Source: an uncultured Clostridia bacterium
GTDB lineage: Bacteria; Bacillota; Clostridia; Oscillospirales; Acutalibacteraceae
Direction: 5' to 3'
DNA: 64,000 nucleotides
NCBI GenBank assembly: GCA_947623505.1
Contig: CANQGT010000006.1
Location: 27,994-91,993, forward strand
The translations under genes were made by a program, and so were the position numbers. This document shows positions 8,187-21,224 of this stretch, piece after piece. The notes under the pieces are model-generated. The model saw only the letters and a program-made list of their open reading frames with translations. It had not been told where the DNA came from and did not search any database. Position 1 is the first letter of the stretch. Each line of letters begins with the position of its first letter.

Positions 8187-10190
8187 ATGAAGTTTGAAAT
8201 TTTAGCTCCTGCGGGAACGTGGGAGTCGCTTGTTGCCGGTGTAAGGTGCGGCGCTGATGCGGTTTACCTTGGTTGTAAAGCGCTTAACGCCCGCCGAAGC
8301 GCCGGCAATTTTAATGATGATGAACTGAAAAACGCCGCCGCTTACTGCCGTGCCCGCGGCGTAAAGCTGTATCTTACTTTAAACACCCTTTGCGGCGACG
8401 GCGAGCTGACCGAGGCCTACGGCATTGTTGAAAACGCCCTTTCATACGGCGTTGACGCTTTTATAGTTCAGGATTTCGGCCTTGCCGAAATGATAAGAAA
8501 CTGCTTCCCGCAGGCAAGGCTTCACGCCTCAACGCAGATGAGCGTGATGAGCCCGCAGGGGGTAAAGGCGCTTGAGGATATGGGCTTTTCGCGCGCCGTT
8601 CTCGCGAGGGAACTTTCCGCCGCGGAGATTGCCGAAATAAGAGAGAATTGCGGTATCGAGCTTGAAATGTTCGTCCACGGAGCGCACTGTATGAGCGTTT
8701 CGGGGCAATGCTATATGTCTTCCGTAATCGGGGCGAGAAGCGGCAACAGAGGGCTTTGCGCTCAGCCCTGCCGCCTGCCGTTTTCGGCGGGAGACGGCCA
8801 CGGCTACGCTTTAAGCCTTAAAGATCTCAGCCTTATAGGTAAGCTTGCCGAAATAGAAAAAACGGGAGTGGTAAGTCTTAAAATAGAGGGCAGAATGAAG
8901 CGCCCCGAATACGTCGCGGCGGCGGTGACCGCTTTAAAAAAGGCGGTAAAGGGCGAATATCGCGCCGACGACGAGGAAACTCTGAAAAGCGTTTTCAGCC
9001 GAAGCGGATTTACAAGCGGTTATTTTGACGGCAGATTGGGGAAAAATATGTTCGGCGTGCGCAGAAAGGAAGACGTTACCGCGGCGGCGCCCGTTCTGAA
9101 AAACCTTTCGCGCCTTTACGAAAAAGAAAATCCTCTTGTGCCGATAGATATGGAATTTGAATGCGGGCGCGGAAAGCCGATGCTGTTGAAAGCGCGGGCG
9201 CTCGGAAAAAGCGTTGAGGTCACGGGGAGCGTTCCCGAACCCGCGCGAACAAAGGCGCTTACACAGACGGAGGCGGAGGAAAGGCTCTCAAAGCTGGGGG
9301 CAACGCAGTTTTACCCCGGCAAAATTAAAGTTGAAATCGACGGCGGTCTTAATGTTTCCGCCTCCGCGTTAAACGCGCTTCGCAGAGAGGCTGTCGAAAA
9401 GCTGACCGCCGCGGAAAAATTCAGCGTAAACGCGCTGCCTATGCCGTGTATTCTGCCGAGAGCGGTCGGAGCGGAGCCGTATTTTACGGCAAGATTTTCC
9501 GATGCGCGGCGGATACCGGCACACCACCCGTTTGCGCGTGTTTTTATACCCATATGGTCGGACGATGGGGCGTTCGGCGATCTTCACGCCGGTGTTGAGA
9601 TCCCGCGCGGCCTGTTTGGAAAAGAAAAAGAGATAACGGAAAGGCTGATTGAACTAAAAAAATCGGGAGTGAATAAAGCCCTTTGCGGAAATATCGGCTC
9701 TTACAGGCTGGCAAAGGCTCTCGGTTTTGAGGCGTTTGGCGATTTCGGGCTCAATGTTTTCAACAGTATTGCGGCGCGGAAATTCAATTCTCCGATACTG
9801 TCTTTTGAACTGAGCCTCGGGCAGGCGAACGCCGTAAATGCCGAGGATACCGGAATAATCGGCTACGGCAGGCTCCCGCTTATGCTGGCGAGAAACTGCC
9901 CCGTCAAAAACGATATAGGCTGCGTAAAATGCGGCCGAAAAGGCGCGCTGACCGACAGAACAGGCGCGCGGTTCCCCGTTGTCTGCTCGCCTTATCCGTG
10001 CGCGGAGGTGCTGAACAGCGTTCCGCTTTATATGGGCGACAGACTGCGCGATATTAAAACCGATTTCATCCATTTTTATTTTACCGACGAAAGCGCCGAA
10101 GACGTTTTGAGGATAATTTCCCTTTACAAAGCGGGTGCGAAGGCGGATTTTCCGTTTACGCGGGGACTGTATTACAGAGGAGTGAAATAA
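8187..10190 (+). CDS. U32 family Fe-S protein with DUF3656-type C-terminus (RlhA-like 23S rRNA hydroxylase)
   Basis: GADAVYLG, EMFVHGAHCMSVSGQCY...NRGLCAQPCR, SLKIEGRMK; 667 aa. Confidence 0.85.
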   Translation: MKFEILAPAGTWESLVAGVRCGADAVYLGCKALNARRSAGNFNDDELKNAAAYCRARGVKLYLTLNTLCGDGELTEAYGIVENALSYGVDAFIVQDFGLAEMIRNCFPQARLHASTQMSVMSPQGVKALEDMGFSRAVLARELSAAEIAEIRENCGIELEMFVHGAHCMSVSGQCYMSSVIGARSGNRGLCAQPCRLPFSAGDGHGYALSLKDLSLIGKLAEIEKTGVVSLKIEGRMKRPEYVAAAVTALKKAVKGEYRADDEETLKSVFSRSGFTSGYFDGRLGKNMFGVRRKEDVTAAAPVLKNLSRLYEKENPLVPIDMEFECGRGKPMLLKARALGKSVEVTGSVPEPARTKALTQTEAEERLSKLGATQFYPGKIKVEIDGGLNVSASALNALRREAVEKLTAAEKFSVNALPMPCILPRAVGAEPYFTARFSDARRIPAHHPFARVFIPIWSDDGAFGDLHAGVEIPRGLFGKEKEITERLIELKKSGVNKALCGNIGSYRLAKALGFEAFGDFGLNVFNSIAARKFNSPILSFELSLGQANAVNAEDTGIIGYGRLPLMLARNCPVKNDIGCVKCGRKGALTDRTGARFPVVCSPYPCAEVLNSVPLYMGDRLRDIKTDFIHFYFTDESAEDVLRIISLYKAGAKADFPFTRGLYYRGVK

Positions 10191-10744
10191 TGCTTGTTTT
10201 GGCGTCAAAATCTCCGAGAAGGAAGGAGCTTCTCGGCCTTATCACAAAAAATTTTTCGGTTAAAAGCGCCGAGGCGGACGAGACTCTGCCGTCGGGGATA
10301 GAACCCGAAAACGCCGTTCTTTATCTTTCAAAACTCAAGGCGCTTCCGCTTAAAAACGACCGCGACGTTATAATCGGCGCCGACACGGTGGTGGCCGTTG
10401 ACGGCTCAATACTCGGAAAACCCGCCGACGACGGCGAGGCGTTTGAAATGCTGAGGAGATTAAGCGGCAGGGTGCATTCCGTTTTCACGGGAGTAACCCT
10501 TGTTTGGCCGGGCGGGGAAAAATCGTTTTATAAAGAGACAAAGGTGAGATTTTACGACCTTTCGGAAAGTGAAATCAAAAACTACATAAAAACCGGCGAA
10601 TGCCGCGATAAAGCGGGGGCGTACGGAATACAGGGCTTCGGCTCTCTGCTCGTGAAGGGAATAGAGGGCGATTATTTCAACGTCGTGGGGCTTCCCGTTG
10701 CCGAATTGTACCGTGAGCTTTGCAAATTGCGGGATTTTTGGTAA
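10190..10744 (+). CDS. maf: Maf-family nucleoside triphosphate pyrophosphatase
   Basis: LASKSPRRKELL, IGADTVV, GKP, DKAGAYGIQG, NVVGLP. Confidence 0.95.
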   Translation: MLVLASKSPRRKELLGLITKNFSVKSAEADETLPSGIEPENAVLYLSKLKALPLKNDRDVIIGADTVVAVDGSILGKPADDGEAFEMLRRLSGRVHSVFTGVTLVWPGGEKSFYKETKVRFYDLSESEIKNYIKTGECRDKAGAYGIQGFGSLLVKGIEGDYFNVVGLPVAELYRELCKLRDFW

Positions 10745-10884
10745 AATTAACAGAATTTTTCAATGTTTTCTTGTATATTGCGACGAATTTTGTGAAACTT
10801 ATGACTTGAAACATTATTTTAAAAATGCTAATATATAAGTATAAAGGGCCAAATGCCTTTCACAATATTTAAAGGAGGATAGTT

Positions 10885-11778
10885 ATGGCAGCAGATCTGC
10901 ATTGTCATACTAAGCTTAGCGATGGTTCCGTAGGAATTGAGGATTTGATAGTAATAGCGCAGAAAAGCGGCATAGATACTATAGCTATTACGGATCACGA
11001 TTGCCTTGCCGGCACGGTAAGGGGGCAGGTAATAGGCAAACGGTACGGCGTTACGGTCATATCGGGTGTTGAAATATCCGCTTTTGATTTTGAGGCGGGC
11101 AAAAAAGTGCATATTCTCAGCTATCTCGCCGACGCTCCCGATCGGCTTGAGGCCGTGTGCAGGCACACTTCCGTGGCAAGAAAAAGAGCCGGCCAGATAA
11201 TGATGCTGAAGGTGGCGAGCCGCTTCCCGATAACGGGCGATTTTATAATCAATCACGCTTCGGGCTCAACAAATCTTTTTAAGCAGCATATTATGCACGC
11301 GCTTATGGACGCGGGATATACGGACAGAATATTCGGGGATCTCTATCACGCTCTGTTTGATCCCACAAGCGAGACTAACGTCCTCGCCCCGACGAAGTAT
11401 CAAAGCGTTGAAAAGGTTATAGAGGAGATACATGGAGCGGGCGGAATAGCCGTTCTTGCCCACCCGATAGCGTTCGATAATGTTGACGAGATAAAAAAAT
11501 ACGTTGATATGGGGCTCGACGGAGTTGAGGTTTGGCACCCGTCCGCGAGCGAGGAAGATATAAATATGCTCTCCGATATTTGCAAAAAGAATAAGCTGCT
11601 TATGACGGGCGGCTCGGATTTCCACGGTATTTACGGCGCGAAAACGGTCACTCTCGGCGCGTGCTCCACTCCTAAGGAGCATCTCGAAAAGCTGCTGAAT
11701 TACAAAGCCAGAAAAAAGCGCGCCGAAAGAAAAGCCGAAAAAGAGGCCGCCGCGAGGGCAACGGAAATGACCGCGTAA
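10885..11778 (+). CDS. PHP-domain phosphoesterase (TrpH/YciV-like)
   Basis: DLHCHTKLSDG, AITDHD, GVEIS, LAHP, GGSDFHG. Confidence 0.9.
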   Translation: MAADLHCHTKLSDGSVGIEDLIVIAQKSGIDTIAITDHDCLAGTVRGQVIGKRYGVTVISGVEISAFDFEAGKKVHILSYLADAPDRLEAVCRHTSVARKRAGQIMMLKVASRFPITGDFIINHASGSTNLFKQHIMHALMDAGYTDRIFGDLYHALFDPTSETNVLAPTKYQSVEKVIEEIHGAGGIAVLAHPIAFDNVDEIKKYVDMGLDGVEVWHPSASEEDINMLSDICKKNKLLMTGGSDFHGIYGAKTVTLGACSTPKEHLEKLLNYKARKKRAERKAEKEAAARATEMTA

Positions 11779-11791
11779 TTTAAACAAATCA

Positions 11792-11835
11792 AAAAAATTC
11801 CGACTTATGCCTTTTCGGCGGGGCCGGAATTTTTT
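11792..11835 (+). terminator. Intrinsic terminator after the PHP gene
   Basis: aaaaaattccg ... cggaatttttt inverted repeat. Confidence 0.7.
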
Positions 11836-11926
11836 GTTGACTTTGGCGCGGCGCAGTATATAATTATCTTGTTAAGGCGGCGCGGTCACAACCGCCGTTT
11901 TAAAAAATAACGAGAGGTAATTTTTT

Positions 11927-13234
11927 ATGAAAAAAACGCTTGCAAAGACTCCTCCCTTGGGATGGAACAGCTGGGATTGCTTCGGTGCGGCGGTGAATGA
12001 ACGGCAGCTGCGAGAAAACGCCGACTATATGGCGAAATATCTAAAGCCATACGGTTGGGAATATATAGTATGCGATATACAGTGGTATGAGCCGAACGCT
12101 AAAAGCAACGATTACAACAATTTTACCGAGCTGAATATGGACGGTTACGGCAGGCTTATGCCCGCCGAAAACAGATTTCCGAGCGCCGCGGGCGGCAAAG
12201 GATTTGAGGAAATAGCCGATTACTGCCATTCCCTCGGTTTGAAATTCGGAATACATATAATGCGGGGAGTTCCGCGCGGCGCCGTTCACGCGAATCTGCC
12301 GATAAAGGGAAGTAAGAGCACTTGCCGCGATATCGCCCATCATTTTTCGGTGTGCTCTTGGAACACGGATATGTACGGCTGCAAAAACTGCGCCGCCGCG
12401 CAGGAGTATTACGATTCGATATTTGAGCTCTACGCCTCGTGGGGAGTGGATTTCATAAAATGCGATGATATTTGCGTAACGGAATTCAGGCGGTGGGATA
12501 ACCCGTATTCCGCCGATTACGAGATAGAAATGATACGAAAAGCGATAGACGGCTGCGGGCGCGATATGGTGCTTTCGCTTTCGCCCGGCCCCGCGAGCGT
12601 AAAAAACGCCGCTCATCTCTCAAAAAACGCGAATATGTGGAGAATGACGGGCGATTTTTGGGACGATTGGGGCAAGCTGCACGATATGTTTGACCGCTGC
12701 AAAGAATGGCAGGGATATGTAAAAAGCGGAAATTGGCCCGATTGCGATATGCTGCCGCTCGGCAGACTCGCCAAAAACGCCCCCTGCCACGGAGCGGCGA
12801 ACAGATTCACAAAGTTTACAAAGCCCGAGCAGATAACGATGATGACGCTCTGGGGAATTTTCAGAAGTCCTCTTATGTTCGGAGGCAATATGCCGGAAAA
12901 CGACGATTGGACTCTTTCGCTGCTCACAAACGAAGAGTTTCTCAAAATGCACCGCGCCTCGCACGGAGCGTATGAATATTTAAGAAACGAGAAAAAAGGC
13001 AGGGGAACGGTCGTCTGGGTAAGCAACGGCAAAAATTGCAAATATGCAGCGCTTTTCAACACCGATGACAAAGAAAGAAGCGTATCCGCCGATTTGAGCG
13101 AAATTCTTATGCCCGGCACGGCCTATAAGGCATACGATATTTGGGAAAAATCAGACGCGGGCGAATTTGCGGGAAAGCTTAAAGCAAGGGTAAGCCCTCA
13201 CGGAGTGCGCCTGTTCAAAATAACGGAAAAATAA
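11927..13234 (+). CDS. Glycoside hydrolase family 27 (alpha-galactosidase / beta-L-arabinopyranosidase-like), no signal peptide
   Basis: TPPLGWNSWD, YIVCDIQWY, VDFIKCDD (nucleophile Asp), WRMTGDFWD (acid/base Asp), WPDCDMLPLG, C-terminal beta-sandwich. Confidence 0.92.
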   Translation: MKKTLAKTPPLGWNSWDCFGAAVNERQLRENADYMAKYLKPYGWEYIVCDIQWYEPNAKSNDYNNFTELNMDGYGRLMPAENRFPSAAGGKGFEEIADYCHSLGLKFGIHIMRGVPRGAVHANLPIKGSKSTCRDIAHHFSVCSWNTDMYGCKNCAAAQEYYDSIFELYASWGVDFIKCDDICVTEFRRWDNPYSADYEIEMIRKAIDGCGRDMVLSLSPGPASVKNAAHLSKNANMWRMTGDFWDDWGKLHDMFDRCKEWQGYVKSGNWPDCDMLPLGRLAKNAPCHGAANRFTKFTKPEQITMMTLWGIFRSPLMFGGNMPENDDWTLSLLTNEEFLKMHRASHGAYEYLRNEKKGRGTVVWVSNGKNCKYAALFNTDDKERSVSADLSEILMPGTAYKAYDIWEKSDAGEFAGKLKARVSPHGVRLFKITEK

Positions 13235-13276
13235 AAACAATGCGGCGCTCGGCTTTCCGAGCGCCGCATTGTTTTT
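13233..13276 (+). terminator. Strong intrinsic terminator after GH27
   Basis: Perfect 20-bp stem aaaaacaatgcggcgctcgg / ccgagcgccgcattgttttt with a 4-nt loop. Confidence 0.9.
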
Positions 13277-13421
13277 GCCTGATATTATTTGATTTAAGCC
13301 GAAATTTATTACAGATTGAAAAAAATATATAAAAAAACTATAAAAAATCGAAAAAAATAGTGCAATTTTAATAACGCTGTGTTAAAATATTAAAAATACA
13401 CAAATTGAAAGGGGTTTGTTT

Positions 13422-15233
13422 ATGGCAAACAAGTTGGCTTCGTCAGCGGGCAAACTATTTACCGATATTAAAACGCACTGGAAAACTCCGGCGCCGGGAA
13501 AGTATGTTCCCTACAGGGAATATGCCGACATACTTATCGGAAACGGCAGCAACTATGTTGCAAGTAAAACTTTGGAATATCTCCAATTTGCCGCAAGCTG
13601 CTATCTGATGATGTATCATTACAAGCTGCCCTACCTCACGTTCTCTATAATCGCGCTTATCAATATGCCGCTCAATTATATCTGGACGATGATGGGCTGG
13701 GTAATCAACGACAATCTCGGCTTTCTGCCGAAAAAAACGGAGCGAAAATTCAATTTCGTTTATATCGCGCTCATTGTGATAGGTTTGTCGATGGTTATCG
13801 GCGATTATTCGCAGCTGTTTGATCAATCAAGTAAATTTATTACATATCTTAACGGTCTTGAAGGCATAAACGCCATCGCGGCGTTTAAGATACTCGGCAC
13901 GCACATTCTTTGGAACGGCTGGTCGGGCGCCAGAAATATTTTCTACCGCAAAAAACTCATTCCGAAATTCGGAAGATATAAATATTCGCTCTATTGCGAT
14001 TATCTCCCGAAAGTTATTATGGTATTCCTTCTCGGTTGGCTTCCGTTTTACACCACTATTACGGATGTTCCCACAAGAGTTTGGGTTGCGAACCTTCTGT
14101 TCTCGATTTACAATCTGTTCGGCGGATTCGCCGTCAATGTATGCAATCTTGAAACCTGCGCGCAAAACTGCAGTCCCAATGTTCGCGAAAGGATTTTCGT
14201 AAGAACATGGCCCATCAAGTTTTCGCATTTCGCGCAGTCCATACTCGGCATAGTTCTTCCCGTATTTATCGGTATGACAAAAGACGAGTGGGCAGATATA
14301 GCGGTGTTCAAGTGGATAATTCCGTTCACTTTCCTCGTATCATCTACTCTCACAATGATTTTCGCGGGCAGGATAAAAGAAAGAATACCTCAGCCGCCGT
14401 TGGAGAAAAAGGTCGGAATAAGTTTCTGGAACGGTATGTTCGGCGTTATGAGGAACAAATACAAATGGATTCAAACGATCGTCGGCCTTTTGGATTCCCT
14501 CGGAAACGGTATGCTTGCCTTTACAACCGTTTTGTATCTCTATACGTTCCGACTGAGCGGTCTGCCCTACAGCCTGATCGTTGCGCTTATATCGTTTGCC
14601 GGAACCCCCCCGGATTTGTTCACGCCTTATTTCATAAAGAAGTTTACATATAAGCAGATTATGATATTCTTCCAGCTGTCAAGGGCGATAAGCTACACGA
14701 TAGTTGTTTTGGCCTACATTTTCTGCGGAGATAATCTGAATCTCTGCGGCACGATATGCGTTATCGTCCTGTTTATAACGGAGATGTTCCAAACGGTGCC
14801 CAAGTCGGTAAGCCACGATATGGACGTCCGTGTAAACGACTATCAGATGTATCTTTCCGGCGAAAGGCTCGAAAGCTTCTCCGGCGTATTCGGATGGTTC
14901 ACCGGTCCCATCACCTCTTTTGTAGGTCTTATTATCCCTCTTCTTCTTCTGAGATTCGGCTTCAGCAGTAACTGGGACGTTTTGTTCATAGATTCAACAA
15001 GAATCAAGATAATAGTTGTGCCCATCATCTTTGATATAGTCGGTTATCTGCTTATGACTATACCTTATCTTATTTGGGATTACGACGATGATAAGCAAAA
15101 TAAGGTTATTCAGGTTTTGAGGCGCAGAGAAGAGGTTACTCGAAAACAGTTTGAGGCGTCCGATTCGGATAAGAGCGACAGCGAGGCGCTGCCCGCCGAA
15201 GCTCAAACAGAAACAGCGGAGGTGACGTCATGA
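13422..15233 (+). CDS. MFS transporter, glycoside-pentoside-hexuronide (GPH)-like, unusually long
   Basis: About 603 aa with many hydrophobic helices; NVRERIFV loop and C-terminal YLIWDYDDDK resemble GPH symporters; ATG after AAGGGG. Confidence 0.75.
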   Translation: MANKLASSAGKLFTDIKTHWKTPAPGKYVPYREYADILIGNGSNYVASKTLEYLQFAASCYLMMYHYKLPYLTFSIIALINMPLNYIWTMMGWVINDNLGFLPKKTERKFNFVYIALIVIGLSMVIGDYSQLFDQSSKFITYLNGLEGINAIAAFKILGTHILWNGWSGARNIFYRKKLIPKFGRYKYSLYCDYLPKVIMVFLLGWLPFYTTITDVPTRVWVANLLFSIYNLFGGFAVNVCNLETCAQNCSPNVRERIFVRTWPIKFSHFAQSILGIVLPVFIGMTKDEWADIAVFKWIIPFTFLVSSTLTMIFAGRIKERIPQPPLEKKVGISFWNGMFGVMRNKYKWIQTIVGLLDSLGNGMLAFTTVLYLYTFRLSGLPYSLIVALISFAGTPPDLFTPYFIKKFTYKQIMIFFQLSRAISYTIVVLAYIFCGDNLNLCGTICVIVLFITEMFQTVPKSVSHDMDVRVNDYQMYLSGERLESFSGVFGWFTGPITSFVGLIIPLLLLRFGFSSNWDVLFIDSTRIKIIVVPIIFDIVGYLLMTIPYLIWDYDDDKQNKVIQVLRRREEVTRKQFEASDSDKSDSEALPAEAQTETAEVTS

Positions 15234-16483
15234 GTTCCGAAAAGAAAAAAGCCAAGGCAAAAAAATCGAATGACGATTTCCTTGCCCAAGAGGCTAAGGA
15301 AAGCCAGCAGACGGCGGAGGCCTATACTATTGATATTCCCGAAGACGAAATTTGGACTTATCAGATAGACGGTCTTCAAAAGCCGCTGATAAATCAGCCG
15401 TATAAAAACGCGACGGTTAAAAAGATAGTAGTCGTTGTGGCGCTTGTTATCGCCATCGGCGTTGCGATATGGCTTTCGGTGCGCGCCGTGCATTCCGACC
15501 CGTATCAGTACAAGGCGCTGGACGACGGCACTTATGAACTTGTAAAATATTCAAATCCGGGCGGCGTAACCGAGCTCACGGTAGATTACGTTGTTGACAA
15601 CAAGACCGGCGAAAAAGATACGACGAAGCCGATTTCCCGGATTTCGGCGTTCGCGTTCAACTGCGATGAAGTCCTCAACGAGATAACGTTCGGAAAAGAC
15701 GTCAATTTTATAGACGGAAAATCGATTTACAGCTGCTGGTGGGTGCGCAACGTTTGGATAGATGACGCGAACCCGAATTACTGCGATATCGACGGCGTTA
15801 TTTACAATAAGGACCTGACAGAGGTGGTTTTCTATCCCAACGACCACGATAAATATATAAGGGCGCAGACGGGATACGACAATCTGCTTGATGATCAGGG
15901 CAATCCAATGGAGGAGCTTTGGGGCGTTACCGAAAGATACGACGAGGCGTTTTTCAACGAATACAATAAGGTTGTAAGAACTTATGTCGTTCCCTCCACC
16001 GTAACAAAAATCGGCGAGCTCGCGTTTGCGTATTCAAATATTACCGATCTTTATATTCCCGAGGGAGTTAAAGAAATGGGCAATATGGCAGTGTTCAAAA
16101 ACACCGAGCTCTGCAACGTTTACAGCTACACCACCGATAAGCCCATAACCGACGTCACCTATAAGTCGATAGACGGTATGAAAACGGTTTACAATTCTCT
16201 GCCCGAAGGGCTTGAGAGTATCGGCAGCGACTGCTTTTACTATTGCAGAAAGCTTTCGTATATGTATATTCCGTCTTCCGTTACCTATATAGGCCACCAT
16301 GCTTTTTGGGACGCCTGCTATAAGGAAGGCGACGAGATTAAGGGAATAAACGTTATGAACGTTGCCGCCGACGAGGATACTTTCAAAGATAAGACCGAAA
16401 CGGGCGACAGCTGGCGTCCGCAGTACGACTATATGCTGTTCAAGAAAACGATAGACACCAATTTCGGAGCCGCAAGGCAGTAA
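15230..16483 (+). CDS. Single-pass membrane protein with extracellular BspA-type leucine-rich repeats
   Basis: Charged N-terminus, TM IVVVVALVIAIGVAIWLSV, repeats such as VPSTVTKIGELAF, LPEGLESIGSDCF, IPSSVTYIGHHAF; ATGA overlap with the MFS stop. Confidence 0.8.
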   Translation: MSSEKKKAKAKKSNDDFLAQEAKESQQTAEAYTIDIPEDEIWTYQIDGLQKPLINQPYKNATVKKIVVVVALVIAIGVAIWLSVRAVHSDPYQYKALDDGTYELVKYSNPGGVTELTVDYVVDNKTGEKDTTKPISRISAFAFNCDEVLNEITFGKDVNFIDGKSIYSCWWVRNVWIDDANPNYCDIDGVIYNKDLTEVVFYPNDHDKYIRAQTGYDNLLDDQGNPMEELWGVTERYDEAFFNEYNKVVRTYVVPSTVTKIGELAFAYSNITDLYIPEGVKEMGNMAVFKNTELCNVYSYTTDKPITDVTYKSIDGMKTVYNSLPEGLESIGSDCFYYCRKLSYMYIPSSVTYIGHHAFWDACYKEGDEIKGINVMNVAADEDTFKDKTETGDSWRPQYDYMLFKKTIDTNFGAARQ

Positions 16484-16499
16484 AACCGCATAAAAACAA

Positions 16500-16534
16500 C
16501 AGGCAGATTTCCTTTCGGAGTCTGCCTGCTTTTT
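16500..16534. terminator. Terminator between convergent LRR and MATE genes
   Basis: caggcagatttcc / ggagtctgcctg followed by a T tract. Confidence 0.75.
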
Positions 16535-16555
16535 AGTATATTGCGGTAAATATAT

Positions 16556-17932
16556 TCAGCTTTGCGGATAATATTCCGGATCTTTCTTGATTTTCGCGTT
16601 TATGATGGCGAACATTGCCGCCGCGAGAATAACGCATGCGAGATCGGCAACCGGCTGAGCGAATACGATGCCGTCAAAGCCGATGTACTTACTCATTATC
16701 ACAAGCAGAGGAAGAAAAACGAGGCCCTGCCGCCCGAGGGAGATAACAAGGCTCGGCAGCGATCTGCCCATTCCCTGAAACGCGAAATTATAGGTGAACA
16801 TAATTCCGAGGAACGGTCCGGAAATCATAAGCGCTCTTAAAATCTTAACGCCGTAATCGGTTACTTCGGCGTTGTGCTCGCCGTTGAAAACGTTTATTAT
16901 CTGGGGCGCGAATACTATATACAGCGCCGAAAGCACCGTTCCTATTATCACGGTGCACATCATCGTAAAGCGCATCGCTTTTTTAAGGCGGCGCATATTT
17001 TTCGCACCGTAGGAATAGCCGATAAGCGGCTGAATGCCAACGCCGATTCCCATTTGAACAAAGGCGATAAGCATATTCACTTTCATCGCTATTCCGAGCG
17101 CCGCAACGGCGGATTCGCCGTAATCCTTTATAAAATTGTTTAAAATAATATTGGAAAAGCTCATCAGCAGGTTGTTTATTGCGGCGGGTATCCCGATGGG
17201 AATAACGTTTCTCGCTATTCCGTCGTTTACCGCGAAACGCCTGGGATTGCAGGATAATATCGAATTGCCCCTCATAAGATAAACGGCATAATATACCACC
17301 GATGCGAAATTGCCTATAACCGTGGCTATCGCCGCGCCCGCAACGCCCATATCCATGCTCAGAATCATTATCGGGTCAAGAATAATATTCGTTATGGTGC
17401 CTATCATCATTCCCGTCATCGATTCTTTTGCCGCGCCCTCGCCGCGCACAAGGTTTCCCGCGGTTATGGAGGTCACGATAACAGGGCCGCCGAGCGCTAT
17501 ATATTTAAGGTAGCCGTAGGCGAAATCATAAACCTCGTCGCTTGTTGAGCCGAGCATATTTATAAGCGGTTTTATAAATATCAGTATAAGCGCGAGTACA
17601 AGCGCGCCCGAAAAGATAGAGGAAAAAACGGCAAACGAGCTTATCTTTTTTACCTTGCTTTTATTTCCCTCGCCCATGGAGCGCGAAACGTAGGCAGAGC
17701 CGCCAACGCCGAAAATGTTGCCGAACGCCACGAAAAATAAAAACACCGGCATTGTAAGCGAAACGGCGGCGGTGGCGTTCGTATTTTTCATAAGGCTTAC
17801 AAAATAAGTGTCCGCCATATTATATATAACGTTTACAATGCTTGAAAGCACGGACGGAACCGAGAGCGCCGCCACGGCCTTGGGTATGGGATATGAGGAA
17901 AAAATCCTCTCCCTTTTTTCTTTAGATGCCAT
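16556..17932 (-). CDS. MATE family efflux transporter
   Basis: 458 aa, about 12 TMs, NMADTYFVS, GVGGSAYVSRSMGE, NIILDPI, GIQPLIGYSYGA. Confidence 0.93.
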   Translation of the reverse strand: MASKEKRERIFSSYPIPKAVAALSVPSVLSSIVNVIYNMADTYFVSLMKNTNATAAVSLTMPVFLFFVAFGNIFGVGGSAYVSRSMGEGNKSKVKKISSFAVFSSIFSGALVLALILIFIKPLINMLGSTSDEVYDFAYGYLKYIALGGPVIVTSITAGNLVRGEGAAKESMTGMMIGTITNIILDPIMILSMDMGVAGAAIATVIGNFASVVYYAVYLMRGNSILSCNPRRFAVNDGIARNVIPIGIPAAINNLLMSFSNIILNNFIKDYGESAVAALGIAMKVNMLIAFVQMGIGVGIQPLIGYSYGAKNMRRLKKAMRFTMMCTVIIGTVLSALYIVFAPQIINVFNGEHNAEVTDYGVKILRALMISGPFLGIMFTYNFAFQGMGRSLPSLVISLGRQGLVFLPLLVIMSKYIGFDGIVFAQPVADLACVILAAAMFAIINAKIKKDPEYYPQS

Positions 17933-17979
17933 TAAATCTTATCCTCCAAAAGCGGCTGAAAGGTTTGCCGCTTTAAATA

Positions 17980-18828
17980 TTACAGAATTTCGGAAAGCCT
18001 CGCAAATTCCTCAAGAGAGAAGCTTTCGGCACGCGCCTGCCCGCTTACGCCTATTTCCGAAAGCGCACTCGCAACGCTCTCCTTAGATATGCCGAGCCCG
18101 CCGGAAAGGCAGTTAAGCGCCGTCTTTCTCCGCTGTGAAAACGCCGCTTTTACAATGGCGAAAAACCGCTTTTCGTCGGCGATTTCAACGGGCGGCTTTT
18201 CTCGTGGCGAAAGCTTTATTACAGCGCTGTCTATTTTCGGCTGCGGATAAAACCGGCTTTTGTCCACTTCAAAAAGCATTTCTGCTTTCGCGTAGTAATT
18301 TACCGCAACCGTGACCGCTCCGCTTTCCCTTGTTCCCACCTCGGCGCAAAGGCGCTGCGCGGCTTCCTTTTGCACCATAACCACGATTTCCTCCGCCGGG
18401 AGCCTGCTTTCAAGCAGTTTCATAATAATCGGCGAGGTGATATAGTAGGGCAGATTCGCGCATATTTTTATGCGGGAAAATCCGCCGAAACTATCGCTTA
18501 TAAGAGAATTGAGGTCGAGCTTGAGAGCGTCTCCCTCCACGAGCTCAAAATTTGAAAATTCTTTCAGAGTTTCCTCAAGAACGGGAAAAAGCCTTTTGTC
18601 AAGCTCAACGGCCGCAACTTTTCCCGCTCTTTTGCAGAGCTCCGCGGTAAGCACGCCGATTCCGGGGCCGATCTCAAGAACGCCGACGGTTTTGTCGGCG
18701 TTAAGCGTATCGGCCATTTTCGGGCAAACGTCTTTATCAATGATAAAATTCTGCCCAAGGCTTTTTGAAAAGCCGAAGCCGTGTGATGAAAGTATTCTTT
18801 TTACCGTGTTGTAATCGTAAAGCTCCAT
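17980..18828 (-). CDS. rsmA: 16S rRNA adenine dimethyltransferase KsgA/RsmA
   Basis: KSLGQNF, EIGPGIG, ANLPYYIT, MVQKE, AFSQRRKT. Confidence 0.97.
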   Translation of the reverse strand: MELYDYNTVKRILSSHGFGFSKSLGQNFIIDKDVCPKMADTLNADKTVGVLEIGPGIGVLTAELCKRAGKVAAVELDKRLFPVLEETLKEFSNFELVEGDALKLDLNSLISDSFGGFSRIKICANLPYYITSPIIMKLLESRLPAEEIVVMVQKEAAQRLCAEVGTRESGAVTVAVNYYAKAEMLFEVDKSRFYPQPKIDSAVIKLSPREKPPVEIADEKRFFAIVKAAFSQRRKTALNCLSGGLGISKESVASALSEIGVSGQARAESFSLEEFARLSEIL

Positions 18829-18915
18829 AATTTTCCCGCAAAAGAAATAAAATCTTGCGCTTTTCGCACCGAGCGTTCATTTTAACACATTCATATTTAA
18901 TTTACAAGTTTCTTG

Positions 18916-18974
18916 TTGACTTTTTTTTAACATATGATAAAATAAGCAGTAGCCAAACAATGTTAGCCGACTAA
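18916..18974 (+). promoter_or_regulatory. Promoter and probable MarR operator
   Basis: TTGACT-N16-TAAAAT with an extended TG; near-palindrome TTAGCCGACTAA at 18963-18974 and a degenerate copy GTAGCCAAACAA at 18949-18960. Confidence 0.55.
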
Positions 18975-19033
18975 ATTAACGGCTTGACCGATCTTACACA
19001 TAAAATTTCAATCGGGAAACGGAAGCGAAAAGC

Positions 19034-19498
19034 TTGAAAAAAGACGGTTGCTACGACCCGCCCGCAAAGGGAATGATAGGCCCCAGGGTAGGTCATCTTT
19101 CAAAAATGACGAAAAACGCATTCAACAAAGCGCTTGCCGAGCAAGGGCTTTTTTCGGGGCAGCAATATATTCTTTTTATTGTAAATCATCACGAGGGCAT
19201 CTCGATGTGCGAGCTTTCAAAGGAACTCGGCGTTGCGCCGGCAACCGTTTCCGTTTCGGTTAAACGAATGGAAAAATCCGGATTTATTATAAGAAAAACG
19301 GACGAGGAAGACGCGCGGCTCACGCGGCTTTATCCAACCGAAAAAGCGCGGCAGGCTCCCGAAAACATCAGAAAAAAGATGGCTTTGATAGATGAAACGT
19401 TAAAAAAGGGAATGACTCAGGAGGAGATAGAACTGCTTTCCGATCTCCTTGACAGAGCGGCAGAAAATATGAAAGCGGAGGATAATACATATGATTAA
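19034..19498 (+). CDS. MarR family transcriptional regulator
   Basis: LSKELGVAPATVSVSVKRMEKSGFIIRKTDEEDARLTRLYPT winged helix; TTG start. Confidence 0.92.
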   Translation: MKKDGCYDPPAKGMIGPRVGHLSKMTKNAFNKALAEQGLFSGQQYILFIVNHHEGISMCELSKELGVAPATVSVSVKRMEKSGFIIRKTDEEDARLTRLYPTEKARQAPENIRKKMALIDETLKKGMTQEEIELLSDLLDRAAENMKAEDNTYD

Positions 19499-21224
19499 AA
19501 AGCTTTCAAAGCATATGAAGGGCCTTTGGCTCCTTGCTTTGGCAAGCGCTTCGGGTATGATAACAGAGGCAATTTGCGAGCTTGCCATGCCCTCAATAGC
19601 AAATATGGTATATAACAGGGTGTCCGAAACGGGCGGCGAAGATATTACCGGCTATGTCGTAAAGGTCGGCGTCGGAATGTTTTTGCTCGCCATTGTGGGG
19701 CTTTGCGGCGGTATAGTCACAATGAAAACCTCTTCTGTCGTGGCGCAGACGTTCAGCTATAGGCTGAGGAAGGAACTCTACGCGAAGATCAGCGCCTTTT
19801 CTTTCAATAATATAGACAGGTTTTCAACCGCTTCGCTTACAACAAGAATAACAAATGACGTTACGGCGATACTGAACACCGTTATGATGTGCCTTCGTAT
19901 GCTGATAAGGGCTCCCGCCCTGCTTATAGTTTCCGCCGTGTTCGCCTTTTCCATAAACGCGCGGCTCTCGCTTATGCTTTTGGTTTTGCTTCCGATAATC
20001 GTTGTAATAGTCGTTCTTGTTTTGAAATTCGGTTTTCCGATGTTTCAGAAAATGCAGAAGAAGATAGACACCGTAAACAGAGTCGTTCAGGAAAACCTTA
20101 TAGGCATAAGAGTTGTAAAAGCCTTTGTGCGCGAGGACGAGGAGAAAAAGAAATTTCATAACGCCTCCGACGATCTTGCGCGTCAGGGCTCAAAGGCCGC
20201 CGGACTTATCGTTACGGTAATGCCCATTCTGATGCTATTGATGAACGCCGTAATAATGTACGTGTATTACAAGGGCGCTAACGATGCGGCAAAGGGGCTT
20301 ATGGACGTCGGCCAGATTTCCGTGCTCGCCCAGTATATTATGCAGATGCTTATGAACATTATGATGGTTTCGATGTTCCTTTTGCAGATAACAAGGGCAA
20401 AGGCGTGCGGCGACCGTATAGTTGAGGTGCTCGATACAAAAATAGATATAGAAAACTGCGAAAAGCCGTTTATCCCCGAAGCTCCCAAGGGCGAAGTCGA
20501 ATTTAAAAACGTCAGCTTCGGATACAATGAAAACAGCACGGTTCTTGACGATATAAGCTTCAAGGCAAAGCCCGGCAGCGTTGTCGGCATAATCGGCTCC
20601 ACCGGCTGCGGAAAATCCTCCTTGGTAAATCTCATACCCCGCCTTTACGACGTTTCAAAGGGCGAGGTTCTTGTGGACGGCGTGGACGTGCGCAAGTACG
20701 ATCTCGCGGCGCTCAGGGATTTTATCGGAGTTGTTCTTCAGAAAAACGTTTTGTTCACCGGCACTATAAAAAGCAATATACGCTGGGGAAAACAGGACGC
20801 GACGGACGAAGAGATAATTGAGGCCTGCAAAGCCGCTCAGGCGCACGATTTCATAATGGCTCAGCCGGACGGTTACGATACCTTGCTCGTTCAGGGCGGG
20901 CTCAATCTTTCGGGCGGCCAAAAGCAGAGATTGTGCATTGCGCGCGCTATGATAAAAAAGCCCAAAATACTCATTCTTGACGATTCAACTTCCGCCGTTG
21001 ATACGGCGACGGAGGCAAAGATAAGGGAGAGCTTTTATTCGAGCCTTTCCGGCACCACGGTGTTTATTATAGCTCAAAGAATTTCCTCCGTTAAGGACGC
21101 GGACGAGATCATAGTGCTGGACGACGGCAGGATCGACGCTATAGGTACAAACGATGAGCTTCTTGAAAGCAACGAGATATATAAGGAAATTTATAATACT
21201 CAGCAGAAAGGGGTGTTTGAATAA
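19491..21224 (+). CDS. Heterodimeric ABC exporter subunit with a degenerate ATP site
   Basis: TMD plus NBD; GSTGCGKSS, LSGGQ, Walker B LILDDS (no catalytic Glu) and IIAQR (no switch His). Confidence 0.92.
   Translation: MIKKLSKHMKGLWLLALASASGMITEAICELAMPSIANMVYNRVSETGGEDITGYVVKVGVGMFLLAIVGLCGGIVTMKTSSVVAQTFSYRLRKELYAKISAFSFNNIDRFSTASLTTRITNDVTAILNTVMMCLRMLIRAPALLIVSAVFAFSINARLSLMLLVLLPIIVVIVVLVLKFGFPMFQKMQKKIDTVNRVVQENLIGIRVVKAFVREDEEKKKFHNASDDLARQGSKAAGLIVTVMPILMLLMNAVIMYVYYKGANDAAKGLMDVGQISVLAQYIMQMLMNIMMVSMFLLQITRAKACGDRIVEVLDTKIDIENCEKPFIPEAPKGEVEFKNVSFGYNENSTVLDDISFKAKPGSVVGIIGSTGCGKSSLVNLIPRLYDVSKGEVLVDGVDVRKYDLAALRDFIGVVLQKNVLFTGTIKSNIRWGKQDATDEEIIEACKAAQAHDFIMAQPDGYDTLLVQGGLNLSGGQKQRLCIARAMIKKPKILILDDSTSAVDTATEAKIRESFYSSLSGTTVFIIAQRISSVKDADEIIVLDDGRIDAIGTNDELLESNEIYKEIYNTQQKGVFE

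Follow-up and report, generated by a model that had tools for sequence, protein, structure and literature searches.

Results

A transporter gene and a leucine-rich repeat gene form a bicistron

The stretch of DNA analyzed here (the window) comprises 64,000 nucleotides of contig CANQGT010000006.1 from an uncultured Clostridia bacterium of the family Acutalibacteraceae (assembly GCA_947623505.1; 1.82 Mb, 96.7% complete). Two overlapping genes in this window are the subject of the present study: ORF1 encodes an oversized transporter of the major facilitator superfamily (MFS) and ORF2 a membrane-anchored protein with leucine-rich repeats (LRR). Comparison of related loci strongly supports the assignment of both genes to a dedicated two-component unit. 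In Pfam searches, ORF1 matched MFS_2 with 36 bits (cut-off 27) over amino acids (aa) 184-546 only, and ORF2 matched LRR_5 with 75.5 bits (cut-off 27.7). NCBIfam yielded only trivial matches below threshold, such as HupY/LrrG with 30 bits against a cut-off of 1250, and no Rfam family reached its gathering score in the 64-kb window (no tRNA, rRNA, riboswitch or leader).

An earlier interpretation of the same DNA, derived from its letters alone (the sequence-only reading), had proposed a bicistron with an ATGA overlap, a common AT-rich leader and a single terminator, and all of these elements were found. The overlap lies at 15230-15233 and is preceded by the Shine-Dalgarno (SD) sequence GGAGGTGA at 15218-15225, inside the final codons of ORF1, while hairpins at 13233-13276 and 16500-16528 bracket the pair (Table 1). 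The first hairpin insulates the bicistron from the alpha-galactosidase unit upstream, and the gene 3' of the second is a convergently oriented MATE gene. The AT-rich leader of the MFS gene spans 145 nt and contains a candidate promoter, TTGAAA-17 nt-TATAAA, that was missed by a promoter scan because its -10 hexamer ends in A. An alternative TTG start codon is located two codons upstream of the ATG of the MFS gene but is less likely to be used because the orthologues begin with MA(N/E)K.

The C-terminal tail of the MFS is variable among orthologues, yet it ends in a conserved E-V-(M/T)-S. In the window, the corresponding codons GAG GTG ATG TCA TGA comprise the SD site and the start of the LRR gene, and the conservation of the C-terminal residues is clearly imposed by translational coupling. 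With the SD sequence in the stop region of the MFS gene and the overlapping start codon, the two subunits would therefore be made together.

Table 1. Positions of genes, signals and protein segments at the MFS-LRR locus (numbering of the window; TM, transmembrane; AF2, AlphaFold2).
Feature	Position	Strand	Basis or remark
ORF1, GPH/MelB-type MFS gene, 603 aa, 14 predicted TM helices	13422..15233	+	ORF list, Pfam, AF2, fold and profile searches
ORF2, LRR partner of 417 aa, type II membrane protein with one TM helix and BspA-type LRR_5 ectodomain	15230..16483	+	
Family-specific insert of the MFS, aa ~101-183, two TM helices and outward loop	13722..13970	+	Alignment, hydropathy, AF2
Cytoplasmic N-terminal tail of the partner, aa 1-60, basic	15230..15409	+	Low pLDDT, hydropathy
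TM anchor of the partner, aa 61-87	15410..15490	+	Hydropathy, AF2, conservation
Extracytoplasmic LRR_5 domain of the partner, aa 88-417	15491..16480	+	Pfam, AF2, fold search
Translational-coupling junction: SD GGAGGTGA in last MFS codons and ATGA stop/start overlap	15218..15233	+	
SD-like AAAGGGG, 7 nt before the MFS ATG	13408..13414	+	
Candidate sigma-70-type promoter TTGAAA-17 nt-TATAAA	13316..13344	+	By eye, in AT-rich leader
Strong hairpin, 20-bp stem, T/A runs on both sides	13233..13276	.	Terminator of upstream alpha-galactosidase gene
Intrinsic terminator of the bicistron, 12-bp stem (16500-16528) and T-run	16500..16535	+	
GH27-like alpha-galactosidase (Melibiase_2 and Melibiase_C), separate transcription unit	11927..13234	+	Pfam

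The LRR gene accompanies the MFS gene throughout the family

Our survey took in about 175 loci, with MFS identities as low as 25%, and judged them where the flanking sequence sufficed (loci, genomes, contigs and clusters are cited by our own labels). An LRR gene was adjacent or fused to the MFS gene in every locus with enough flank. The closest orthologues formed a set of 80 loci with 62-87% MFS identity, all from metagenome-assembled genomes (MAGs) of gut, rumen or caecum labelled Eubacterium, Acutalibacteraceae, Oscillospiraceae or Ruminococcaceae. Here, the LRR gene follows directly downstream in 78 of the 80 loci, and in the remaining two the contig breaks off at the MFS gene; the -4 ATGA overlap was kept in 53 of 76 orthologous loci. 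A profile search added a second set of 79 loci, in which the MFS is ~33-40% identical to the A2 search query. Again, every flanked locus has an adjacent LRR gene, and in approximately 60 of the 79 it lies upstream, abutting or overlapping the start of the MFS gene. The third set consists of 18 regions from sampled genomes, 14 of them with an MFS 25-30% identical to that of the window, and contains a minimal partner next to the MFS in either order or fused to it (G134, 1011 aa). Loci first scored as lacking a partner turned out to have an LRR gene once open reading frames at contig ends or with overlaps were allowed, and in the remaining exceptions (L039, L056 and L150) the contig ends less than ~130 nt from the MFS gene on the relevant side. 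The expectation that MFS orthologues usually occur without an LRR gene, which would have spoken against a common function, thus failed decisively over these loci.

In a tree of 173 MFS sequences, the basal clades mostly have the order MFS>LRR and one has LRR>MFS. Beyond them follow a clade of fused genes, a superclade of ~60 loci with the order LRR>MFS, and the MFS>LRR clade of the window, inside which a fusion at L066 is nested. The other fusion clade comprises L099, L101, L188 and P0125. Clustering at 90% identity groups P0125 in a set of 14 sequences, which come from NCBI (HZJ74958.1, there called 'leucine-rich repeat protein'), JGI, ENA and Logan, and since at least 8 independent assemblies carry the full-length version of 1015-1029 aa, this fusion is not an assembly artefact. 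The fusion proteins run from the MFS C-terminus through a charged linker to a TM helix and the LRR domain, and in P0125 the Pfam LRR_5 match lies at the C-terminus. This order places the C-terminus of the MFS inside and the LRR domain outside the cell, and fixes an N-in/C-out orientation of the partner. Mapped on the tree, the arrangements imply that the pairing outlasted several rearrangements and became covalent on at least two occasions. No neighbor besides the LRR gene is conserved: the next most frequent neighbor cluster occurs at no more than 15 of 159 loci, and stand-alone bicistrons account for ~60% of the loci. A two-component unit of MFS and LRR protein had already been suggested by the sequence-only reading, and its partner is now found in all flanked loci, in both gene orders and in in-frame fusions.

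The MFS is a GPH-type protein with an inserted transmembrane hairpin

The MFS of ~603 aa had been described as oversized, with extra hydrophobic sequence in its N-terminal half, and this excess could be pinned to an insert of ~80 aa with two TM helices (aa ~101-183). An N-terminal amphipathic helix and a C-terminal tail of ~50 aa contribute further length. The AF2 model, built with 41 orthologues (predicted local distance difference test (pLDDT) 67.9, predicted TM-score (pTM) 0.67), contains 14 long helices, among them the two inserted ones, H104-126 and H151-183, which are joined by a polar loop. The number of 14 rather than 12 TM helices results from the insertion of this hairpin in loop 2-3, and as this loop is cytoplasmic, both termini of the MFS should lie inside and the loop connecting the hairpin helices outside. 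The position between TM2 and TM3 is an unusual insertion point for MFS proteins (PMC8154325).

Both its sequence and its fold assign the MFS to the GPH (glycoside-pentoside-hexuronide) superfamily. MelB entries were the top matches of the model in a Foldseek search of the PDB (E 2e-6, TM-score on target 0.65), followed by the lysolipid carrier MFSD2A and then Spns2, and a profile of the wider MFS family matched MelB with an E-value of 1.2e-10. The profile alignment begins past TM2, beyond the MelB cation-site residues in TM1 and TM2; the Asp/Asn/Asp triad in TM2 of MelB is perhaps not kept in the MFS of the window. The central motif DY..(W/Y)..G.R.E is present as D473-Y474-Q475-M-Y-L-S479-G480-E481-R482-L-E and aligns in the family profile to the 'DYGEFKLNIRCES' region of MelB. 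The insert splits the GPH loop 2-3 signature '...DN(T/H).-(R/K).GK(F/Y)RP' into 'INDNLGFLPKKTERKF' and 'KKLIPKFGRYKY' in ORF1, with DNLG and KFGRYKY as the two halves. The contiguous signature D-x..-R-x-G-[KR]-[FY]-[RK]-P is absent from the family, whose members are best treated as a distinct subfamily.

The insert region has 65-82 residues in 173 of 173 family members and 0 residues in three aligned GPH paralogues of the same genome that lack a partner and have a contiguous signature; hairpin and partner thus travel together. At least 95% conservation across the family was found for N98-L99-G100, K104 and G121, the latter midway along the first inserted helix, as well as for the GPH motifs K182, G184, K187, D473-Y474-Q475 and S479-G480-E481-R482. 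Compared with its nearest orthologues, the MFS gene has a rate of nonsynonymous substitutions (dN) of 0.09-0.16, with saturated synonymous substitutions (dS) and a dN/dS ratio (omega) of ~0.05 where computable. The LRR gene, with a dN of 0.17-0.25, evolves about twice as fast. By these estimates both genes are under purifying selection, and the MFS looks like an intact transporter with predicted transport activity.

In total, the genome of the window contains four ordinary GPH paralogues, which share an N-terminal YWK.PA.GKY..Y.E helix and have no LRR neighbor. Three GPH paralogues of this genome, at C11:40360-42549(-), C16:42540-45032(+) and C8:70020-72554(-), encode proteins of 729-844 aa without hairpin and without LRR partner that carry Lys/Glu-rich, coiled-coil-like cytoplasmic C-terminal extensions of 250-350 residues, which are unusual for sugar permeases. 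Many relatives of 700-850 aa that resemble these extended paralogues appeared in the search of representative proteins. An ordinary GPH paralogue on contig C4 is adjoined by a second, GH36-like enzyme.

The partner presents a BspA-type LRR domain on a conserved membrane anchor

The sequence-only reading had also described the ORF2 product as a single-pass protein with BspA-type LRRs, in agreement with its LRR_5 score and its one TM helix at aa 61-87. The AF2 model of the partner has a pLDDT of 88.8, with values above 90 in the ectodomain and a disordered tail. Its best fold matches in the PDB were 4h09, 4cp6 (PcpA), 4gt6, 4fs7 and 6mlx, and the nearest solved LRR_5 structures are those of the gut-bacterial proteins 4h09, 4gt6 and 4fs7, of pneumococcal PcpA and of TpLRR. 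With a hidden Markov model score above the cut-off and a solenoid fold, the partner is a member of LRR_5 (PF13306). The strings YSCWWVRNVW and HHAFWDACY, previously taken for insertions rich in Trp and Tyr that might stack on sugars, occupy regular consensus positions of LRR_5 repeats and are thereby ruled out as insertions. The true inserts in the ectodomain are helical segments at aa ~203-250 and 296-320.

Among 150 partners, K65 (88%), S79 (76%, Ala in the window) and S83 (88%) stand out in the TM helix, with K65 at its inner end and a small-xxx-small Ser face (79, 83) near its outer end. Such faces are typical of helix packing. Ectodomain residues conserved family-wide include D334, H356-H357, G392 and W395, and IGHHAF is nearly invariant throughout the partner family. 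In the cytoplasmic tail, the motif IDIPxDEIWTYQIDGLxxPL (aa ~33-53) is conserved in the clade of the window. The length of the ectodomain ranges from 277 to 669 aa, and the minimal partners of distant members, consisting of TM helix and LRR domain, have 266-313 aa. The LRR partners at L095:3298-4977, L097:3454-5001 and L143:45-1691 carry an additional TM helix near the C-terminus and, after it, a polybasic cytoplasmic tail, so that their ectodomain is anchored at both ends. In two MAGs, a second large LRR_5 protein of 1073 aa is encoded convergently to the pair (L025:9142-12363(-) and L158:8145-11366(-)).

The pair is rare and patchily distributed

Among 1.84 billion representative proteins, only 272 matches to the MFS at E <=1e-3 were obtained, and many of these were fragmentary sequences or paralogues without the hairpin. 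When the GTDB family was sampled evenly, a member was present in 19 of 201 genomes (19 of 185 genera), with two or three in some of them, and in a sample of the order one of 300 other genomes, from a different family, has a member. No cultured isolate was noticed among the surveyed loci. The pair is absent from G026, the one further genome of this genus in the sample, where the genes flanking the pair in the window (9000-20000) are scattered over two contigs (C8 and C28). As synteny is rearranged in G026, no clean insertion or deletion can be demonstrated, and conservation of gene order in this region is poor even within the genus. The sparse occurrence points to a rare, accessory and lineage-restricted invention of small-genome gut and rumen Clostridia.

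Neighboring genes are mostly catabolic

The alpha-galactosidase gene upstream of the bicistron begins directly at the catalytic-domain motif PPLGWNSW without a signal peptide, and for this reason the enzyme is expected to be cytoplasmic and to need an importer. A functional link between the alpha-galactosidase and the bicistron is at most a weak possibility. The flanking genes of the window (PHP, alpha-galactosidase and MATE) are retained only in L001, and in G094 and G026 alpha-galactosidase is encoded on other contigs.

Across the family, operon mates on the same strand (99 non-redundant proteins) are mostly hydrolases, comprising GH31, GH4, GH3, GH36, GH35, beta-galactosidase, GH43 and GH101-like enzymes. 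Carboxylesterases, GDSL esterases, glycerophosphodiester phosphodiesterases (GDPD), metallophosphoesterases, type I phosphodiesterases and sugar oxidoreductases were found as well. The operon-mate enzymes that were read have no signal peptides. In the clade of the window, the neighbors include GH43 with a carboxylesterase, GH2 beta-mannosidase with GH30, GH31, GH3 and GH27. An operon of GH101-like protein, GDPD phosphodiesterase, LRR protein, hairpin-MFS and metallophosphoesterase recurs in the LRR>MFS clades (L137, L145, L147, L149, L167, L111, L144, L126 and others). Its GH101-like protein of ~459 aa has no signal peptide and a Pfam score of 25.5, barely above the cut-off of 25. This operon hints at a catabolic route for phospho-glycoconjugates in the LRR-first clades, which are paralogous to that of the window. 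Overall, the operon mates fit an import of glycosides or small glycoconjugates, with a cargo that would be clade-specific and possibly strain-specific.

Discussion

The MFS-LRR pair appears to be a heteromeric MFS transporter of a kind known from eukaryotes, and no earlier bacterial case is known to us. A physical complex of the two subunits is very likely in view of their co-occurrence, the fusions and the conserved residues in the TM helix of the partner. The GPH/MelB-like fold and the intracellular hydrolases among the operon mates argue moderately for uptake as the direction of transport, and glycoside import is the likely activity predicted from fold and gene context. Taking complex and activity together, we consider it probable that the two genes encode subunits of one membrane complex, a MelB-like importer and an LRR auxiliary subunit.

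In the complex that we propose, the MFS subunit would contribute a 12-helix GPH core plus the extra TM hairpin, with both ends inside the cell, and the partner would be an N-in/C-out single-pass protein that exposes its LRR solenoid at the outer surface of the membrane. The hairpin may serve as docking platform for the TM helix of the partner, which, with its inner Lys and outer SxxxS-like face, could pack against the hairpin and its conserved Gly121. Such packing would put the LRR domain above the extracytoplasmic mouth of the transporter. The complex would then import a glycoside or small glycoconjugate for intracellular hydrolases, and the LRR subunit would most plausibly capture or pre-concentrate the ligand; alternatively, it may gate or stabilize the transporter.

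Several points weigh against this interpretation. GPH transporters otherwise function as single polypeptides, and the BspA-type LRR domains characterized so far are mainly protein-binding adhesins and not sugar binders. The MFS model is of moderate confidence only (pLDDT 67.9), and inter-protein covariation, calculated as mutual information with average product correction for 150 pairs (effective number of sequences 62), gave no localized signal: the top covarying pairs are scattered and driven by clade structure, without enrichment between the partner TM helix and the hairpin. Likewise, Rfam searches of 13150-13500 returned only chance-level matches and no riboswitch that would hint at the substrate. 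Synteny with the alpha-galactosidase gene was rejected as a guide to the substrate, as only L001, the closest relative, retains this arrangement, which is inverted in L066. Neighboring enzymes differ even within the clade of the window, and the cargo is not readable from them.

The most far-reaching version of the proposal, that the pair is the first bacterial MFS dependent on an extracytoplasmic binding subunit, with the tethered LRR protein docking via the hairpin and handing glycosides or glycoconjugates to the carrier, is tentative. Bacterial secondary transporters that depend on an extracytoplasmic ligand-capture protein are known as TRAP (tripartite ATP-independent periplasmic) and TTT (tripartite tricarboxylate) transporters. 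These systems differ from the MFS-LRR pair in having a periplasmic substrate-binding protein (SBP) fold, soluble or lipid-anchored, and membrane parts that are not MFS proteins, and they contain no LRR domain. Neither an SBP protein nor DctQM/TctAB-type subunits were found in the MFS-LRR system, and the likeness is one of analogy only.

Among the alternatives, a purely ancillary partner is the likeliest, though still unlikely. The LRR protein would in this case serve the insertion, folding, stability or localization of the 14-TM MFS without contacting the substrate, and its ectodomain may have an unrelated surface role. The known partnership of MCT1 with basigin is of this kind: an MFS protein and a single-pass protein interact by TM-TM contact, with the TM helix of the partner touching a peripheral MFS helix (PMC8154325). 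In MCT1/MCT4-basigin, and with embigin, an MFS transporter is likewise combined with a one-helix partner that has a folded ectodomain. Consistent with such a role, the TM helix is among the most conserved parts of the LRR partner, and the ectodomain varies in length (277-669 aa) and evolves ~2 times faster than the MFS. A chaperone alone, however, would need no large ectodomain that is always of LRR type and is kept in all clades down to 25% MFS identity, and D334, H356, H357 and W395 in the ectodomain are conserved family-wide. Moreover, basigin has an Ig ectodomain and type I topology, as opposed to the type II partner of the window, is eukaryotic and non-homologous, has a known role in trafficking, and is associated neither with a hairpin in the MFS nor with gene fusions.

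It is very improbable that the roles are reversed, so that the LRR protein does the actual work as adhesin, receptor or sensor and the MFS is mainly its membrane scaffold, or an inward-signalling transceptor rather than a nutrient carrier. A eukaryotic complex of this architecture exists: UNC93B1, which has the MFS fold, associates through TM contacts with the single-pass LRR receptors TLR3 and TLR7 (PMC8154325). The solved LRR_5 structures nearest to the partner come from adhesins and surface proteins, PcpA among them, and the conserved motif in the cytoplasmic tail of the partner in the clade of the window is a further point in favor. Against such a reversal, conservation of the GPH transport signatures reaches at least 95% and purifying selection on the MFS is very strong, the operon mates are catabolic enzymes and not regulators, and the minimal partners are almost without a cytoplasmic part. 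The sequence-only reading had stated that no MFS-LRR system was described. This is correct as far as our literature search for bacterial MFS/GPH systems with LRR/BspA proteins extends, which returned eukaryotic analogues only, but it does not hold for eukaryotes, where UNC93B1 with TLR3/TLR7 is the only described MFS-LRR assembly that we found. UNC93B1 is an endosomal trafficking chaperone with no known transport activity, the roles of the partners are reversed compared with those proposed for the bacterial pair, and the LRRs of the receptors are of the typical/TLR type in contrast to the BspA-type LRR_5 of the partner.

We regard it as very improbable that the MFS is an exporter or flippase that moves an amphipathic or lipid-linked molecule outward, such as a lysolipid, glycolipid or teichoic-acid-type precursor and comparable to the MFSD2A or Spns branch, to be received or positioned at the surface by the LRR protein. 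The lipid transporters MFSD2A and Spns2 rank just after MelB in the fold search, and GDPD and phosphoesterase genes recur in the operons of the LRR-first clades. Yet the associated enzymes that were read are hydrolytic and lack signal peptides, as expected for the breakdown of imported compounds. Genes for glycosyltransferases or cell-wall synthesis do not recur in the neighborhoods, and the pair is a patchily distributed accessory trait, present in 19 of 201 genomes of the family and missing from one of the same genus. Finally, the idea that the two genes act independently and have only their transcript in common is effectively refuted by the complete co-occurrence over ~175 loci, the pairing kept through inversions of gene order and the two independent in-frame fusions.

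An MFS-LRR importer complex thus remains our preferred interpretation, and its nearest analogues as an assembly, MCT1-basigin, UNC93B1-TLR3/7 and SLC7-SLC3, are all eukaryotic and non-homologous. The architecture of an MFS with a one-TM partner carrying a folded ectodomain is shared with MCT1-basigin and UNC93B1-TLR, and neither MCT1 nor UNC93B1 was among the top 50 fold matches of the MFS. Neither of these two eukaryotic assemblies serves to capture substrate. In SLC7-SLC3 (4F2hc/rBAT), a transporter is combined with a type II single-pass heavy chain that has a large ectodomain (PMC8154325). This system differs from the bacterial pair by its LeuT-fold transporter, which is not an MFS, its disulfide-linked subunits and its glycosidase-like ectodomain. 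The ectodomain fold of SLC3 heavy chains is borrowed from another function.

At the level of single subunits, the closest relationship of the MFS is to MelB and the GPH family (TC 2.A.2, PF13347), with MelB as best fold and profile match, MFS_2 above the cut-off, and the loop 2-3 basic motif and the central DY..(W/Y)..GxR.E motif in common. The intracellular alpha-galactosidase gene beside the MFS unit of the window also resembles the melA-melB arrangement of E. coli. The identity to MelB is only 12-15%, however, and MelB has 12 helices compared with 14 in the family of the window, where the hairpin lies inside the loop 2-3 signature. MelB works alone, whereas the family of the window has an obligate second gene with a predicted role as subunit. 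The partner shares repeat family and fold with BspA, PcpA, TpLRR, 4h09, 4gt6 and 4fs7. Proteins of the BspA type are stand-alone surface proteins or adhesins, in contrast to the partner with its N-terminal TM anchor and the Lys and Ser positions therein.

MFS and GPH carriers are textbook single-polypeptide transporters. If the complex is real, the principle of a transporter with a single-pass ancillary protein, so far eukaryotic, would extend to bacteria, and the natural single-chain fusions would offer a tractable model for structural work. The current annotations as 'MFS transporter', 'leucine-rich repeat protein' or 'hypothetical protein' conceal the partnership, which would provide a concrete function for BspA-type LRR proteins, which abound in gut Firmicutes and for the most part have no assigned function. 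Should the LRR protein indeed act as binding subunit, the pair would join TRAP and TTT as a third type of secondary transporter that depends on a binding protein, and LRR_5 domains of gut bacteria would gain a role in ligand capture for nutrient uptake. For the small-genome, uncultured Acutalibacteraceae of gut and rumen, the pair marks an accessory module of nutrient acquisition that may help to explain their substrate niches.

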